Positions 49,072 to 64,000 of a DNA stretch of 64,000 bases are shown in pieces. The first letter of the stretch is position 1. Every line of letters begins with the position of its first letter. The stretch comes from Dehalococcoidia bacterium (GTDB lineage: Bacteria > Chloroflexota > Dehalococcoidia > Bin125): NCBI GenBank assembly GCA_963555985.3, contig OY820591.1, positions 1,696,001-1,760,000 of the forward strand, in the 5' to 3' direction. The notes beneath the pieces are model-generated. The model worked only from the letters and a program-made list of their open reading frames with translations, ran no database searches and was not told the DNA's origin. The translations under genes and the position numbers were made by a program.

Positions 49072-51726
49072 TCATTCGCCGCCCATCGCGGAGTCGTCGT
49101 CGCCTGCGGTAGGTTCTCCGCATCTGCCCGTGTTCGAGTCGATCTTCTTGACGTCGTATTCGACAGCGGCCCATTGCATGAGGCAGTCCTTCATTTCGTG
49201 TTGATCCACTCCAAACTGCCGCTCCAAGGCACCCTCGGTGAACCACCAGGACCACCAGACCAACGTCTGGTGGTCAGCGAACTGACGATAATACGAAAGC
49301 AGCGACCGTTCACCACCCATGTGAACGAGCAATTCGGTCGCAATCGCGCCCAAGTCGTATGCGAAGTTCTCCAGATACTCTTCCAACTGTTCCACATCTG
49401 CGAGATCGCAATCAAATGTCTTCTCTGCCTTACGGCACAGCTTTTTCTTCGCCTCGACCCGGAAGCTGCTCCACCGCTCTGTCTGGAGCCGGGCATAGTC
49501 GACGTACTTTCGATCGAAGTATCGAGCATTTCCTTCGTACAGCCACTCCGGGGCAAGGGAAGCTTTATCGTATCCAGCATCAAAGGCATGCAGAAATCCC
49601 TCGTAGTCCGCCGAGGCCAACTGAAGAAGGTGGAAGTACTCGTGGGCTACGACTCTCTTCGTAACCTCGAGTCCAGGTTCGTTGTACATGTCATAACGAA
49701 ATCGGATGGCTGCGTGACCCGTGCGGGCCTGGGGAGGTGCAAGTGGGTTAACACTGTTTGGAGTACTTCTTGCCGCCCGTCCCGCTGCGTTCTTCTTCTC
49801 CGTCTCCAGGTCCAACACGTCGAAGGGGATCTCGTAGTGGTACTGCTCCATCAGCTGAGCGAAATCTTCAACGAAATACGGACCGACGTACAGGAAAGCG
49901 TCCTCCGACAGAGTTCCGCCGAATCGCGCTTCGGCGAAGTGCTCGATCGGCTTGATCGACGCCGCCAACTCGGCGATGGCATAGTGATCGTCCAGGAGGA
50001 AGTTCGCCTGCGCGCGCGTTTGATCGCCGGGCACGATCGCCAGGGCGTACTTGCCCTCGGCGAGCCGGTTGATGGAAGTGACGTCGATATAGTAGGTCCC
50101 GGGTTTGAGGACGAAGGTCGCGCCGGCGCCATAGGGTCCGAACCGACCGGCCCCGCTATCGCTGTAGTCATCGCCGCGCGACAGGCGGAACTCCACTGGC
50201 AGTTCGCTCGAGATTAAGTCGACTCGAACTTCGCGCTCCCCGTCCACCGTAAACGCGTATCGGTCAACCCGGCGCGACGGCGATGGATTGAGACTGAGGC
50301 AATCGCCCGATTCCAGGTGGCCATGCCCGACCAAACTATGCCGAACGTCCGTGGTGTCGATCGTGCCGAGTTCGATCGAGCCGCAGTCCCCGCCTGTTCC
50401 CGTCCGGCCATCGGAACCAAGTGAGACGCTGAGCTCATAGTTCCCAAGGCCGTCATAAGTTTGAGCGGCGACGATCTGGTAGTCGCCTGGGGCGAGGGAC
50501 TGGGTGATCTGGGAGCGCAACCCAGTTTCATCATCACCCGGAACAATTTCCCGTCCAGACCCATCCAGCAGGCGGACATACTCCGAGAAATCGCCGGAAC
50601 TCATCTTGATCGTCACCTCGGCGCTTTGCTCAAGCTTGAATGAGTAGAGGTCTGCGCGCTGTTCGGAGTCCAGCGGATCGCGGCAGTCGTCCCAGTAAGA
50701 GAGCAAGCCGGAGCGGTACGCGCCGAGCGAGCGCAACGTTCCCAGATCGTGGGCCGCGCAAGCGGCGACGCCGCCCTGCGTCACGCGCAGGCCGGCCGGC
50801 GGACTCGACTGACCATTGTCGTCGTCGCCCCAGCAATGGACCGCGCCTGACGCCGTCAGCCCGCAGGTGTAACCCCAGCCCGCGCTGACCTGCGTGAAAC
50901 GCCCGGCCGGCGGACTCGACTGGCCGGATTCGTCGTCGCCCCAGCACTGGACTGCGCCCGACGCCGTCAGCCCGCAGCTGTGTGTCCCGCCCGCGCTGAC
51001 CTGCGTGAAACGCCCGGCCGGCGGACTCCACTCGGTCGGCGGACTCCACTGGTCAAAGTTCACGTAGCCCCAGCACTGGACTTCCTTCGACGCCGTTAGC
51101 CCGCAGGTGTGCAACGAGCCCGCGCTGACCTGCGTGAAACGCCCGGCCGGCGGACTCGACTGGCCCGCCCAGTCGTCGCCCCAGCACTGGACCGCGCCCG
51201 AGGTCGTCAGCCCGCAGGTGTGCAACGCGCCCGCGCTGACCTGCGTGAAACGCCCGGCCGGCGGACTCGACTGGCCGAATTTGTCGTTGCCCCAGCACTG
51301 GACCGCGCTCGACGCCGTCACCCCGCAGCTGTGAAAAAAGCCTGCGCTGACTTGGGTGAAGCGACCCGCCGGCGGACTCGACTGGCCGTAGTCGTTCCGG
51401 CCCCAGCACTGCGCCGCGCCCGACGCCGTCACGCCGCAGCTGTGATGTACGTCCGCGCTGACCTGCGTGAAGCGCCCGGCCGGCGGACTCGACTGACCTT
51501 CGTCGTCCCCGCCCCAACACTGCACAGCGCCGGACTCCGTCACTACGCAGGTGTGATCCCCGCCCGCGCTGAGGGTTTCGACTAAACTCGATCCGCCCGA
51601 CTGCGCCTCTGCCGACCCGGCCTCAAGCCCCCAAACCGCAGCCGCAGCGACGACCGCGATGACCGCGAGCGCGGCCAGCCGCAGTTGCAATCTGAACCCA
51701 CCGTCTCCCATTTGCCGGAATGTCAT
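49072..51726 (-). CDS. Secreted multidomain protein: signal peptide, 7 RCC1/BLIP-II repeats, two PPC-like domains, zincin-like HExxH domain
   Basis: Hydrophobic N-terminus ending AEA-Q; 37-aa repeats QVSAG..H.CG....G.VQCWG....GQ; D.Y.F...PG.Y.I beta-sandwich patterns; VAHEYFHLLQ. Confidence 0.82.
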   Translation of the reverse strand: MTFRQMGDGGFRLQLRLAALAVIAVVAAAAVWGLEAGSAEAQSGGSSLVETLSAGGDHTCVVTESGAVQCWGGDDEGQSSPPAGRFTQVSADVHHSCGVTASGAAQCWGRNDYGQSSPPAGRFTQVSAGFFHSCGVTASSAVQCWGNDKFGQSSPPAGRFTQVSAGALHTCGLTTSGAVQCWGDDWAGQSSPPAGRFTQVSAGSLHTCGLTASKEVQCWGYVNFDQWSPPTEWSPPAGRFTQVSAGGTHSCGLTASGAVQCWGDDESGQSSPPAGRFTQVSAGWGYTCGLTASGAVHCWGDDDNGQSSPPAGLRVTQGGVAACAAHDLGTLRSLGAYRSGLLSYWDDCRDPLDSEQRADLYSFKLEQSAEVTIKMSSGDFSEYVRLLDGSGREIVPGDDETGLRSQITQSLAPGDYQIVAAQTYDGLGNYELSVSLGSDGRTGTGGDCGSIELGTIDTTDVRHSLVGHGHLESGDCLSLNPSPSRRVDRYAFTVDGEREVRVDLISSELPVEFRLSRGDDYSDSGAGRFGPYGAGATFVLKPGTYYIDVTSINRLAEGKYALAIVPGDQTRAQANFLLDDHYAIAELAASIKPIEHFAEARFGGTLSEDAFLYVGPYFVEDFAQLMEQYHYEIPFDVLDLETEKKNAAGRAARSTPNSVNPLAPPQARTGHAAIRFRYDMYNEPGLEVTKRVVAHEYFHLLQLASADYEGFLHAFDAGYDKASLAPEWLYEGNARYFDRKYVDYARLQTERWSSFRVEAKKKLCRKAEKTFDCDLADVEQLEEYLENFAYDLGAIATELLVHMGGERSLLSYYRQFADHQTLVWWSWWFTEGALERQFGVDQHEMKDCLMQWAAVEYDVKKIDSNTGRCGEPTAGDDDSAMGGE
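50795..51575 (-). repeat. Seven ~111-bp intragenic tandem repeats (RCC1 blades)
   Basis: Recurrent CCGCGCTGACCTGCGTGAAACGCCCGGCCGGCGGACTC at ~111-bp spacing; one unit carries an extra 18 bp. Confidence 0.9.
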
Positions 51727-61313: not shown

Positions 61314-61675
61314 GAGTGGATGGCGCGTTTGGCGTTGCGGGGGCGCTGGGGGATGCGTGCGGCGCGGCCGGTGCGTCCGCGGAGGTAGTAGAGGCGGCTG
61401 CGGCGGACGCGGCCGCGGCGGACGACTTCGACTTTGAGCACGCGCGGGGAGTGGTAGAGGAAGGTGCGCTCGACGCCGATGCCCTGGGTGACGCGGCGGA
61501 CGGTGAAGTTGGAGGAGGAGCCCTTCTTCTTGCGCCGGATGACGACGCCTTCGAAGACCTGGGTGCGCTCGCGGTCGCCTTCGACGATGAGAGCATGGAC
61601 GCGCACGGTGTCGCCGGGTTGAAACGGTTGGATTTCCTCGTTGCGTTCAAGGGTGAGCAGGTCGCTGCGGTCCAT
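61307..61675 (-). CDS. rplS: 50S ribosomal protein L19
   Basis: [39 protein letters not shown]. Confidence 0.98.
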
Positions 61676-62009
61676 CGTTCGTTCTCTCGGCGTGTTGGGC
61701 GGGAACTGCCAGTGTACGCGGGGGGTTGGCTTTGGCCTAGCGCCCGATCGGGGTGACCCTCAGGCGGAGCGTGACGCGGGATACATCCACAAGGGGATTG
61801 TTCGGCTTGGGGGTGTTCAGGGAGAAATTTATTTTGGCGTGCGGGGATGCTGATCTCCTGTGTTTTCTGGGGTTTTGGCGTTTGGGGTGTTCAGTCTTGT
61901 TCAGGTTTGGGTGTTCGATTGCGTTCGATTGCGTTCGATTTTGGACGGATTTGTGCGGACTTGGACGGGGGCGTTCGGGTGGTGTTTGGGATGTGCGCGT
62001 GGTGTCACC

Positions 62010-62243
62010 CGTTGCGTCACCGGCCATTTCGGAGGCTCCTCAACGCAAGGAGCGCGGCACCTATTCGATGATCCACGTTGCGTCACCGGCCATTTCGGAG
62101 GCTCCTCAACGGTCCTCTACCCCAACCCGCACGGCTACTACCGTTGCGTCACCGGCCATTTCGGAGGCTCCTCAACGAGCGTTGCGCGTTGCGTATCCGT
62201 TCGCCATCGTTGCGTCACCGGCCATTTCGGAGGCTCCTCAACG
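62010..62243 (-). CRISPR. CRISPR array: 4 identical 36-nt repeats, 3 unique 30-nt spacers
   Basis: Repeat CGTTGCGTCACCGGCCATTTCGGAGGCTCCTCAACG (+ strand) at 62010-62045, 62076-62111, 62142-62177 and 62208-62243; exact 66-nt period. Strand inferred from the adjacent gene and scaffold pairing. Confidence 0.93.
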
Positions 62244-63872
62244 AGATAGCAGCCGGAAGCCGGGCAGCGACGCCTGCGTTGAGTGACCTCCTCCATGATG
62301 GGCGAATTCTGGGCGGCTCCCCCGTTCCAGGTGGTTCGGGATCACAGCGGCCGGGGCGGGAACGCAACACCCGCCCTCTGTCAGAGACAGTTGTAAGACG
62401 TTACGCGCCGCGTTCACGTCGGCGTTGGCGGCGTAGCCGCAGGCGGGGCAGTCGAACGTCTCGCCCTGCCGCGCACCCGGCTCGATCGCGCCACACGCTG
62501 AACATGCTCGGGACGTGTAGGGGGCCGGGACCCTGACTAGATGCCCGCCGTGCTTCTCGGCTTTTTCTCCCACGAGCGTCAGGAATTGGCCCCACGTCTG
62601 TTCGCTGATGCTTCGGTTCAGTCCTCGTTTCTGTTTGACGTTCCGCCCCGGCTCCTCCACGGTGCCGGCAGCGCTCTTGGTCATGTTCGGAATCCGCAAG
62701 TCCTCGGCGGCGATGTGGTCGTAACGCCGCACCAGAGCCTGTGCGATGCGGTGATCCTGCTGGCGACGGCGGATGCGGTTCTTGCGCTTGAGCTTGGCGA
62801 GTCGGCGTTTTCGCCGCTCCAGGGTCTTGCTGCCTTTCCGCGACGGCCGGCGGCGGCTGCGCTTCTTGGTCTTGGTTGCGGTCAGCCGCTGCAAGCGCTT
62901 TTCTTCGCTGTCGTCGGGTTCGCGCTTCGGAATCATGATCCCGTCTGAGAGCGCGACGCGAGTGTTGACACCCAGGTCGAGACCGACCATTTTGCCGGCC
63001 TTGGGCAGCGGTTCACGCTCCACCTCACAGACCAGATCGACGTAGAGGCCGTTTGGAGTGAGGTTGAAGCGCACCTCTTTGGGCTTGCAATCGGGCAAGG
63101 TTCCGGGTGACTTCAGCTTGATCCGCAGGTAGTGCTTTCCCTTATGCTGCTGCGCCTTGTGAAACACCACCTCCGCGCGATGCCCGCAGGCCGAGCGCTT
63201 GACATTGCCAGCCTTGATCATCTTGGAGCCGATGCAGCGCCAGCGCTCGCGCTTCTGGTACTTCGGCATCCCGCGAATTCCACTGAGGTGCGCCTGGATG
63301 CTGTTCTGAGCCTTTGCAATCGCCCAGGCCAGCAATCCAAAGTCGAAATCCCGAAGCTCTGGGAACTCGGCGCGCAGAGGCTTGAGGTCGTAGGTCATGG
63401 AGTTGTAGCCGCGGAAGGCCGGCACGCCCGCTTTGGTTCTGCGGTAGTTGTTGGTCTCGGGCAGTTGACGGCGCTCGCGCTCGGCGTCGGTTCGCTCGCC
63501 TACCACCTCCCACCACTTTTGCCCGGTCTCCTCCTCATCTTCCTTCGTCCACCAGGGCGGCTTGTAGACCTTGCGGTAGACCGGCTCGCCGTTTTCGAGG
63601 ACTGGCTTGCCGTTCTTCATTCTCGGCACGATCCAGTACTGTCCCTGCGGGCCGATGCCCTGCTCCCGCATTCGGCGATAGTCGCGGAAGGCGCGGTATT
63701 CCTCGACGACGGCGTTGTAGATGGCGCACTGGACTCCGGCGATGCGGTGGAGCTTGTCGTAGTCGCTGCGGCGGGCGCGGACGGCGCGTCGCTGGAGGGT
63801 TCGGACGAGAGGTTTGGGGGTGTCGGGCATCTGTTGGTTTGCCTCGTTTGGGGGATACTCATATGTTCGCAT
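62238..63872 (-). CDS. tnpB: CRISPR-associated TnpB-family RNA-guided RuvC nuclease (Cas12f/type V-U-like)
   Basis: RuvC-I VGLDLGV (D299), RuvC-II IAAEDL (E390), Zn finger CSAC/CPAC, RuvC-III NADVNAARN (D485); IS605-type SAAGTVEEPGRNVKQKRGLNRSI segment. Alternative start at ATG 63830. Confidence 0.92.
   Translation of the reverse strand: MRTYEYPPNEANQQMPDTPKPLVRTLQRRAVRARRSDYDKLHRIAGVQCAIYNAVVEEYRAFRDYRRMREQGIGPQGQYWIVPRMKNGKPVLENGEPVYRKVYKPPWWTKEDEEETGQKWWEVVGERTDAERERRQLPETNNYRRTKAGVPAFRGYNSMTYDLKPLRAEFPELRDFDFGLLAWAIAKAQNSIQAHLSGIRGMPKYQKRERWRCIGSKMIKAGNVKRSACGHRAEVVFHKAQQHKGKHYLRIKLKSPGTLPDCKPKEVRFNLTPNGLYVDLVCEVEREPLPKAGKMVGLDLGVNTRVALSDGIMIPKREPDDSEEKRLQRLTATKTKKRSRRRPSRKGSKTLERRKRRLAKLKRKNRIRRRQQDHRIAQALVRRYDHIAAEDLRIPNMTKSAAGTVEEPGRNVKQKRGLNRSISEQTWGQFLTLVGEKAEKHGGHLVRVPAPYTSRACSACGAIEPGARQGETFDCPACGYAANADVNAARNVLQLSLTEGGCCVPAPAAVIPNHLERGSRPEFAHHGGGHSTQASLPGFRLLSR
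62244..62380 (-). ncRNA. Putative omegaRNA/tracrRNA-like scaffold overlapping the 3' end of the nuclease gene
   Basis: Anti-repeat at 62277-62291 and hairpin at 62354-62376 whose loop is complementary to the repeat 3' end; boundaries approximate. Confidence 0.7.
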
Positions 63873-63968
63873 AGTTTGGGCTGAATGGCAAATGGGGGGT
63901 GCTGCGAGGTTGCTGGATTTGTCGTTCAGGAGCAGGCGATGATCCGCGCTCTAGTCGACACGCCGCAT

Positions 63969-63993
63969 GGATTCCCGCGTTCGCGGGAATGAC
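63969..63993. repeat. REP-like palindrome GGATTCCCGCG-TT-CGCGGGAATGAC
   Basis: Perfect 9-bp stem; related to 28595-28664. Confidence 0.7.
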
Positions 63994-64000
63994 GGAAACA

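Follow-up and report, generated by a model that had tools for sequence, protein, structure and literature searches.

A probable guide-RNA scaffold in the coding tail of a TnpB-derived type V effector gene beside a short CRISPR array in a Chloroflexota bacterium

Placement of a guide-RNA scaffold within the coding tail of a compact nuclease gene is already in print for Cas12n and TranC (PMC12216341; bioRxiv 2026.03.27.714800). According to PMC12216341, the tracrRNA of Cas12n shares sequence with the part of the ORF that encodes a disordered tail, and a pseudoknot is formed between bases -4 to -2 and the stem-1 loop at -168 to -170. Cas12n (type V-N, formerly V-U4) is characterised by an A-rich 5' PAM and RNA-guided dsDNA cleavage as a monomer. 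The locus described here is part of a 64-kb stretch of DNA (the window). TranC (transposon-CRISPR intermediates; Jin et al., Cell 2025), as presented in PMC13565253 and bioRxiv 2026.03.27.714800, combines a TnpB-like protein with a short CRISPR array lacking Cas1/Cas2, as found here; its guide is taken there to derive from division of an omegaRNA into tracrRNA and crRNA, a description that the pairings predicted for the present locus would also fit.

The omegaRNA (reRNA) of ISDra2 TnpB (PDB 8H1J/8EXA) lies over the 3' end of the gene and has a pseudoknot adjoining the guide, both as predicted here, and the first unit of the present locus would resemble it in being continuous scaffold plus guide. 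Unlike ISDra2 TnpB, the locus has four guides in an array, a putative extra repeat:anti-repeat helix, and no TnpA in the genome. Cas12f differs in having its tracrRNA encoded between genes and in working as a protein dimer. Pseudoknot and repeat:anti-repeat stems are features of Cas12f and, by prediction, of this locus, and a similar L-shaped core is reported in PMC12216341.

All coordinates are positions within the window, and gene, scaffold and repeats are all read on the minus strand. The gene and array comprise the following.

62238-63872, minus strand: TnpB-derived type V effector gene, 544 aa (P0001), identified by profile matches and intact catalytic residues
62240-62238, minus strand: stop codon TGA, within repeat 1; the gene overlaps repeat 1 by 6 nt
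62208-62243, minus strand: repeat 1, 36 nt; bases 28-36 (62216-62208) are the putative pseudoknot 3' strand, adjoining the guide
62178-62207, minus strand: spacer 1, 30 nt, in which the 8-nt motif from the end of the repeat occurs twice
62142-62177, minus strand: repeat 2
62112-62141, minus strand: spacer 2, 30 nt, no match found
62076-62111, minus strand: repeat 3
62046-62075, minus strand: spacer 3, 30 nt, self-match in own chromosome
62010-62045, minus strand: repeat 4, the last

The RuvC triad (D299/E390/D485) and CxxC...CxxC zinc finger of P0001 are intact, and its Pfam matches are OrfB_IS605 and Cas12f1-like_TNB. On the NCBIfam model guided_TnpB (NF040570) it scores 177.1 bits over residues 143-494, above the curated cut-off of 100; scores fall under the curated cut-offs for the IS200/IS605 and IS607 TnpB models (106.6 and 87.1 bits; cut-offs 425 and 350) and for type V-U2 (c2c8) NF038192 (125.7 bits, residues 261-462 only; cut-off 350). 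The best PADLOC model is Cas12u4 at 157.8 bits, with Cas12f (156.0) and Cas12u2 (149.8) nearly equal. The Cas12u4 alignment matches profile positions 239-439 (out of 488) to residues 291-496 and thereby covers the RuvC/TNB half only, and an array-bearing relative of 400 aa (L007) scores above P0001 on that model, at 169.8 bits.

Cas12n (RdCas12n, PDB 9J09) is the best solved-structure sequence match of P0001 (E 2e-24), but the likeness is confined to the RuvC/TNB half; the WED/REC half of P0001, including an insert of ~90 aa, is without match. The average Cas12n given in bioRxiv 2026.03.27.714800 is 544 aa, as is P0001, and the hosts differ, being Actinomycetota for Cas12n and Chloroflexota here. 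Judged against PMC12216341, Cas12n and this locus have in common a disordered C-terminal tail holding tracrRNA codons (predicted here), a short array and no adaptation genes, and also, by prediction here, a pseudoknot spanning ~160-170 nt with a repeat:anti-repeat helix adjoining it; the loop lies at -162 to -154 in this locus and at -168 to -170 in Cas12n. Foldseek comparison places Cas12f structures at the head of the list for P0001, at a low sequence similarity (14-18%), and finds the same fold in ISDra2 TnpB (TM 0.77 normalised to target). LaTranC matches only distantly (E 1.5e-7; Foldseek rank 23). The 36-nt repeats are within the range of 32-38 reported for TranC; according to bioRxiv 2026.03.27.714800, the TranC clades studied there lack an unstructured tracrRNA-holding tail, whereas this locus, as Cas12n, has one, by prediction.

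The effector gene is single-copy in the genome and sits between trmD and rplS. With homing in mind, the sequence past the last repeat was compared with the empty site, but relatives differ too much between trmD and rplS for insertion ends to be placed. A palindrome at 63971-63990 was considered as a transposon end and dropped, as it is a dispersed repeat found genome-wide.

The elements proposed for the scaffold lie at the 3' end of the gene.

62378-62390, minus strand: 5-bp hairpin just 5' of stem 1, possibly the region of the scaffold 5' end; minimum-free-energy fold only
62354-62376, minus strand: stem 1, 7-bp hairpin GGGCGGG/CCCGCCC, with a homologous hairpin in relatives
62369-62361, minus strand: stem 1 loop, 9 nt, putative pseudoknot 5' strand, complementary to repeat bases 28-36
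62313-62348, minus strand: stem 2, imperfect stem-loop lying 3' of stem 1 and 5' of the anti-repeat; minimum-free-energy fold
62277-62291, minus strand: putative anti-repeat, pairing with repeat bases 1-15
62244-62276, minus strand: linker of 33 nt with a small hairpin, from anti-repeat to repeat 1; by fold
62241-62372, minus strand: codons 501-544, the C-terminal tail over the RNA scaffold, predicted disordered

The segment 62396-62244 of the minus strand is probably a tracrRNA- or omegaRNA-like scaffold of a TnpB-derived miniature type V effector, overlapping the last 44 codons of the gene. The loop of stem 1 would pair with the last 7-9 nt of a repeat to form a pseudoknot adjoining the guide, the anti-repeat at 62291-62277 would pair with the first 15 nt of the repeat, and the spacer 3' of the repeat would serve as guide. 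Given such pairings of the scaffold with both repeat ends, the repeat would combine two pieces, the 3' arm from the last stem of an omegaRNA and the pseudoknot 3' strand. The effector's own mRNA may be the scaffold precursor, as reported for TnpB and Cas12n. Since the 33-nt linker joins the anti-repeat to repeat 1, the first unit would form one continuous omegaRNA-like guide, and scaffold, repeat 1 and spacer 1 could be usable as a fused guide in cis; repeats 2-4 would pair in trans with scaffold that has been cut free, and the complex would presumably cleave DNA.

The minimum-free-energy fold recovers the anti-repeat pairing, the stem 1 hairpin and stem 2. Much of this had been anticipated by a sequence-only reading of the locus: the hairpin at 62376-62354 does have a loop complementary to the last 9 nt of the repeat, through 7 Watson-Crick and 2 flanking G-U pairs, and the further imperfect stem between hairpin and anti-repeat is present in the fold at 62348-62313. 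For the anti-repeat, pairing with the 5' part of the repeat and the position 33 nt upstream of repeat 1 stand, but the 14 bp with one bulge per strand that had been drawn do not; the pairing is ungapped, with 12 Watson-Crick pairs and 1 G-U (13 pairs) around a 2x2 internal loop. Rfam families gave no matches at E <= 1 in 61500-64000.

An unlikely alternative is that the locus is what remains of a TnpB/omegaRNA unit in decay, with a duplicated right-end module; the complementarities would then be inherited from an omegaRNA that once worked, and nothing would be made or used now. The array is small, with four repeats, 36 nt each, and three unique 30-nt spacers, an arrangement that qualifies as a CRISPR array, and the repeat has no further copies elsewhere in the genome. 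Neither Cas1, Cas2 nor a Y1 transposase (TnpA) was found in the host genome, which is 96% complete. Spacer 3 is 29/30 identical to a site inside an APH-family phosphotransferase gene of its own chromosome, a target that an active nuclease should not tolerate; this is the sole protospacer found, its 5' flank ending GGCG, and 22-nt seeds of all three spacers gave no exact matches in viral contigs. Decay is visible in the array of one relative (L192), and homologues of P0001 at E <= 1e-40 were found in 0/64 other genomes of the same order. Against decay, no stop interrupts the 544 codons of the gene, alignments show invariant catalytic and zinc residues, and the four repeats are 100% identical. 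In a set of about 15 billion proteins P0001 has only three close homologues (P0003, P0122, P0123); they are 72-73% identical to it, are of full length and retain the tail motifs. The tail codons of these homologues call for A in place of U at loop position 8, and for C in place of U at the anti-repeat base that faces repeat position 6. In run X5 of another study, a contig of 96 nt has the same repeats flanking a different spacer, although this is a single low-depth record, and contigs of three further runs overlap parts of the scaffold with no difference listed. None of the runs listed as containing the locus is an RNA run, and the four examined consist of DNA-type contigs.

P0001 represents a rare, undescribed lineage of TnpB-derived small CRISPR nuclease. 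The DNA of its close homologues was not found in genome contigs, JGI metagenome contigs or viral contigs, no CRISPR arrays were found in 80 JGI metagenome loci, and homologues at E <= 1e-35 occur in 5/400 other genomes of the class, none of them close.

Of the two pairings, the pseudoknot is the better supported. One hairpin per locus was picked regardless of downstream sequence, and 13 of the closest 15 loci had such a hairpin. A downstream Watson-Crick complement of the loop of at least 7 nt was present in 6/13 cognate loci compared with 8/174 non-cognate pairs. On the opposing side, power was lost under a relaxed hairpin definition (9/15 cognate, 47/210 non-cognate), whose background was too high and which was replaced by the one pre-chosen hairpin per locus, and over all loci the figures were 10/84 cognate and 345/10,970 non-cognate. 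Array-less TnpB relatives have the same hairpin directly after the RuvC-III Asp codon, and the 7-mer in its loop can pair with the bases that immediately precede the guide, in about ten different sequence pairs. A stem immediately 3' of stem 1 is likewise present in relatives. The complement is at the guide border in array-less L020, L022, L028, L029, L031, L044 and L071 (by eye also in L019 and L021), and at repeat bases 29-35 of 36 in the window and in L007. In a comparison of six array-bearing loci, the repeat end had a partner of 6 nt or more in the scaffold of the same locus in 4/6 cases, compared with 3/30 foreign scaffolds, and L194 has 9 loop-repeat pairs, one of them G-U. In the genome itself, 9-mers pairing as well as the loop with the repeat end number 136 in 6,668,214 positions on both strands, or ~2e-5 per loop. 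Covariation across homologues, on which the sequence-only reading had staked its proposal, is seen for the pseudoknot in diverged relatives; that the putative pseudoknot loop co-varies with the guide border or repeat 3' end across relatives of quite different sequence is well supported.

The anti-repeat, as a predicted pairing, is only moderately supported and statistically modest. In the same register, 15-mers as good as the anti-repeat number 50 in 6,668,082 positions (0.0015 expected per 200 nt), and the expectation rises to 0.049 per 200 nt over all 22 repeat registers. By duplex energy the pairing is weaker: 31/1000 dinucleotide shuffles and 39/3000 random genome windows were equally good, as were 27/500 and 18/300 shuffles in further tests by energy or compact complementarity. 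Of the six array loci, only L025 (9/300) and L194 (19/300) did about as well as the window in the 300-shuffle test, and L193 (120/300), L007 (94/300) and L048 (188/300) did not. L193 and L194 have repeats homologous to those of the window, L193 being identical at 24/36 positions as counted on the alignment, and folds of both loci pair repeat bases 1-15 with an upstream segment. Relative to the window, L193 has compensatory changes on both sides at repeat positions 1, 6, 11 and 13. In L193 and L194 the linker between anti-repeat and repeat is shorter than the 33 nt of the window, at 19 and 4 nt respectively. For L007 and L025 the prediction places the partner of the repeat immediately upstream of repeat 1, paired with the middle of the repeat instead of its 5' end, so the anti-repeat geometry is not uniform. 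MAFFT on four scaffolds aligned the repeats and did not align the hairpins.

The hairpin, stem 2 and anti-repeat are all within codons of the tail predicted to be disordered. AlphaFold2 gives residues 501-544 a pLDDT of 29-40 and no secondary structure, the last helix ending at residue 498. The distance of the stop codon from the RuvC-III Asp codon is +60 nt in L194, +102 in L193 and +180 in the window, while the RNA modules persist, and the entire scaffold of L194 is downstream of the stop codon. In relatives the stop codon precedes the RNA modules or falls within them, so that the tail appears to be coding only incidentally. The earlier suggestion that RNA rather than protein constrains the last ~45 codons agrees with the pLDDT of <50, the shifting stop codons and the Cas12n report (PMC12216341), and the last 44 codons very probably double as guide-RNA scaffold.

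Use of a crRNA alone, with the tail hairpin and 15-nt complement arising by chance or serving the protein or mRNA (e.g. as a stabilising or attenuating hairpin), seems quite improbable. Such an effector would agree with the modest single-sequence statistics of the anti-repeat and with the self-complementary repeat ends (1-5 and 32-36), which would be able to form the base of a hairpin in the crRNA. In relatives, nevertheless, the loop co-varies with its partner downstream, also where that partner is in non-coding DNA, and protein coding cannot account for this; the L194 scaffold is wholly past a stop codon, and all solved relatives of similar size (TnpB, Cas12f, Cas12n, TranC) use a long scaffold. 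Transcription of the array from the plus strand, in which spacers would precede repeats and the minus-strand pairings would be irrelevant, is very improbable, for although no promoter-like site was found on either strand, three G-U pairs become A-C mismatches on the opposite strand, the modules correspond in position to the omegaRNA that array-less relatives have at the gene 3' end on the gene's strand, and in 7/7 array-bearing relatives the array is 3' of the gene on the same strand. The scaffold-repeat-spacer order on the minus strand, as first proposed, is upheld by this comparison with relatives.

In the tree, the nearest relatives of P0001 are array-less Chloroflexota TnpBs, and members with and without arrays are mixed within a single clade. 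Such relatives would provide a natural progression between a single omegaRNA and a mini-array and bear on the origin of type V CRISPR systems from transposons. Work on TranC already addresses this origin, so the locus is supporting material and not a new principle. It would add a rare lineage of compact RNA-guided nuclease (about 500 aa without the tail) whose guide architecture is readable from its sequence, a prerequisite for testing the lineage as an editor.

A bolder and rather doubtful extension is that this Chloroflexota TnpB clade preserves stages of omegaRNA splitting. Array-less members would keep a continuous RNA, and mini-arrays would cut the last stem variously, in an apical linker (33, 19 or 4 nt) or at the stem base, with the first unit still a natural single guide; spacers would change without Cas1-Cas2, and one guide would be aimed at a host kinase-family gene. 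If true, the system may act on its own chromosome, in regulation or addiction, beyond invaders alone. The presence of a self-matching spacer alongside a lack of adaptation genes is the least expected feature of the locus.

The putative guide-RNA scaffold lies on the minus strand at 62396-62244 and overlaps the 3' end of an effector gene that is single-copy in the 3.33-Mb host genome. Four identical repeats, separated by three unique 30-nt spacers, abut this gene without a gap, and its TGA stop codon (62240-62238) falls within repeat 1. The repeat is found nowhere else in the genome. The principal features, together with stretches of two related loci that have homologous repeats, are as follows.

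63872-62238, minus strand, effector gene, a 544-codon open frame of the TnpB family
62243-62208, minus strand, repeat 1, 36 nt
62177-62142, minus strand, repeat 2, 36 nt
62111-62076, minus strand, repeat 3, 36 nt
62045-62010, minus strand, repeat 4, 36 nt
L002:3424-4359 (host region; window-equivalent 64164-65099), minus strand, D12-class N6-adenine DNA methyltransferase, 311 aa (Pfam PF02086, E 6e-19)
L194:2242-2467, relative with homologous repeats
L193:1354-1515, minus strand, relative with homologous repeats

The sequence-only reading held that an anti-repeat and a pseudoknot loop in the coding tail form a natural single guide. The elements it described are real, and for the most part its interpretation finds support. 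The 9-nt loop of a 7-bp hairpin (stem 1, 62376-62354) is, as had been read, complementary to the last nine repeat bases through seven Watson-Crick and two terminal G-U pairs; across 6.67 million genome positions there are 136 9-mers that pair equally well with the repeat end. Array-less relatives carry, 45-70 nt past the RuvC-III Asp codon, a G+C hairpin whose stem has 6-7 bp and whose loop has 9-10 nt. Seven consecutive nucleotides of that loop are the exact complement of a 7-mer lying 50-110 nt downstream, immediately ahead of the presumed guide. The sequences of loop and complement vary by locus (L020, L022/L028, L029, L031/L047, L044, L055, L071), and the same arrangement can be read by eye in L019 and L021. 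Among array-bearing loci, the loop complement falls within the 36-nt repeat, at bases 29-35 in the window and L007 and at the last six bases in L025; the repeat end forms six pairs with the loop in L193 and nine, one being G-U, in L194.

The predicted pseudoknot is strongly supported by co-variation of loop and partner across relatives. The closest 15 loci were tested with one hairpin per locus, picked beforehand; 13 have such a hairpin, and a complement of 7 nt or more is present in 6 of these 13 cognate loci versus 8 of 174 non-cognate pairs. A relaxed hairpin definition gives 9/15 versus 47/210. Over all 174 loci, 84 of them with a hairpin, the corresponding figures are 10/84 and 345/10,970, and loci at greater distance evidently differ. 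In four of six array loci the repeat end has a match of 6 nt or longer in the scaffold of its own locus, versus three of 30 foreign scaffolds. Since the loop partner is non-coding in many loci, protein coding does not explain the co-variation. The published RdCas12n account pairs bases -4 to -2 with a stem-1 loop at -168 to -170 (PMC12216341), a geometry matched by the window loop at -162 to -154.

The anti-repeat likely exists as a paired element and is moderately supported. Bases 62291-62277 pair gaplessly with repeat bases 1-15 (12 Watson-Crick pairs, one G-U, a 2x2 internal loop); the proposed position and 33-nt distance upstream of repeat 1 hold, with 13 pairs in place of the proposed 14. 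Only 50 15-mers in 6.67 million genome positions match this quality in the same register, with 0.0015 expected per 200 nt, or 0.049 over any repeat register. Energy-based tests are weaker in this G+C-rich DNA: among 1000 shuffles 31 are equally good, and among 3000 genome windows 39. Later chance tests gave 27/500 and 18/300. Compact complementarity singles out the window (18/300), L194 (19/300) and L025 (9/300), and not L193 (120/300), L007 (94/300) or L048 (188/300). In L007 and L025 the repeat partner adjoins repeat 1 and pairs with the repeat middle. Both-sided pair changes between L193 and the window at repeat positions 1, 6, 11 and 13 add compensatory support drawn from few sequences and single-sequence folds.

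The minimum-free-energy fold gives the hairpin, the anti-repeat pairing and, between them, the further imperfect stem that had been anticipated (stem 2, 62348-62313). Scaffolds folded one at a time, with the pseudoknot strand kept open, share a common plan at all folded loci, with stem 1 followed directly by stem 2 and then by a last stem, which only a few bases separate from the pseudoknot strand; in array loci the repeat serves as the 3' arm of this final stem. The distance from anti-repeat to repeat 1 among the three homologous repeats falls from 33 nt in the window to 19 nt in L193 and 4 nt in L194, the last being a 4-nt loop that makes a natural single-guide hairpin.

Effector residues 501-544 are modelled by AlphaFold2 at pLDDT 29-40 without secondary structure, and their codons (62372-62241) coincide exactly with the scaffold. 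Compared with the homologous protein P0003, the tail shows conserved islands and no conservation across stem 2; with codons mapped onto the fold by hand, the islands fall on the hairpin, a weak stem at 62312-62293, the anti-repeat and a linker hairpin. The stop codon lies 60 nt past the Asp codon in L194, leaving the entire scaffold intergenic, at +102 in L193, between stem 1 and anti-repeat, and at +180 in the window, in repeat 1. The RNA modules are thus retained from locus to locus and the reading frame across them is not, which makes the strongest case for RNA constraining the tail codons and fits the earlier suggestion for the last ~45 codons. Two accounts report the same of Cas12n (PMC12216341; bioRxiv 2026.03.27.714800).

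The scaffold would derive from the mRNA of the effector or from a transcript that reads through into the array. TnpB and Cas12n proteins are reported to process their own mRNA (bioRxiv 2026.03.27.714800), and by analogy the window effector may do likewise. Unit 1 would form a continuous scaffold-repeat-spacer RNA, the positional equivalent of the omegaRNA of array-less relatives, and repeats 2-4 would receive stem 1, stem 2 and anti-repeat only in trans. This proposed arrangement agrees, at the level of sequence, with the 'functional RNA splitting' of TranC as set out in a review (PMC13565253) and a preprint (bioRxiv 2026.03.27.714800). Since Cas12n and TranC already provide published examples of the principle, the locus is a rare new representative and not a new principle. 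It is useful in that its guide architecture can be read, its relatives stand at different stages and one of its spacers matches the host itself.

By sequence and predicted fold, the effector is a TnpB-family RNA-guided nuclease. It matches Pfam OrfB_IS605 and Cas12f1-like TNB and exceeds the NCBIfam guided_TnpB cut-off (177 bits); the NCBIfam c2c8, IS605-TnpB, IS607-TnpB and Cas12f2 models each score under their own cut-offs. The top PADLOC profile, Cas12u4 (157.8 bits), covers the RuvC half only and is nearly tied with Cas12f (156.0) and Cas12u2 (149.8 bits). The closest solved structure by sequence is 9J09 (E 2e-24, residues 291-493), identified as RdCas12n in PMC12216341. Alignments of 11 and of 53 relatives show no variation in the RuvC Asp/Glu/Asp residues or in the four zinc cysteines. 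An AlphaFold2 model from 53 sequences has a confident TnpB/Cas12f-like fold (mean pLDDT 78), for which Foldseek returns AsCas12f and ISDra2 TnpB with E values of about 4e-16.

An insertion of about 3.4 kb, made up of effector gene, array and methyltransferase gene, separates trmD from rplS; 10 of 11 relatives have these two genes at a spacing of 89-148 nt. The methyltransferase gene sits immediately upstream of the effector, just beyond the window end. None of 64 other genomes from the order has an effector homologue at E <= 1e-40, and Cas1, Cas2 and Y1 transposase have no match in the genome, which is 96% complete. Upstream of the effector gene, a perfect palindrome of 20 nt (63971-63990) was rejected as a transposon end, being a dispersed REP-like element with 32 genome copies; a looser pattern finds 97, and further copies lie close to the loci of relatives from other families of the class. 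Just past the array, about 61810-61980 recurs at no fewer than 12 other genomic places (70-98% identity) and includes a 10-nt tandem repeat (61913-61940); one sequencing run shows a 20-nt insertion at 61925.

Close homologues are restricted to three among about 15 billion proteins (72-73% identical, from three ENA contigs). The next relatives, about 40% identical and 390-520 aa long, come mostly from Dehalococcoidia and other Chloroflexota assemblies, and most lack a roughly 90-aa N-terminal insert. In a maximum-likelihood tree the window protein and P0003 form a long branch, whose sister group of 15 rows (13 Chloroflexota and two Terriglobia assemblies) interleaves array-bearing and array-less members in unresolved order. 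Most relatives have no array, and none was found in 80 metagenome loci; the seven that do have one (L007, L025, L048, L193, L194, L195 and the decayed L192) carry it immediately behind the gene and on its strand. Two of them, L193 and L194, have repeats homologous to those of the window, with 24 of 36 positions identical in L193 by hand count on the alignment. The L192 array is a decayed copy, and L192 and L193 belong to the same genus.

Spacer 3 (62046-62075) matches the host's own chromosome at 29 of 30 positions (G000:C1:139399-139428, region L179) in an APH-family phosphotransferase gene, with the mismatch at spacer position 24 and a 5' flank ending GGCG; orthologous sites in relatives match at 27/30 or fewer. 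Seeds of 22 nt from all three spacers have no exact match in viral contigs. A run from another study holds a 154-nt contig identical to part of the effector gene and a 96-nt contig with the same repeats around a different spacer, a single low-depth record that hints at spacer turnover. Spacer 1 (62178-62207), as read from the sequence, contains two overlapping copies of the repeat-terminal 8-nt motif, which could be alternative pairing sites for the pseudoknot loop. Elsewhere, tandem repeats of period 111-129 nt (about seven copies, 80-88% alike) occupy 50792-51572, and a crude k-mer scan of the host genome flagged two stretches of regularly spaced direct repeats (spacings 54, 66, 87) at G000:C1:425649-426072 and G000:C9:15997-16369.
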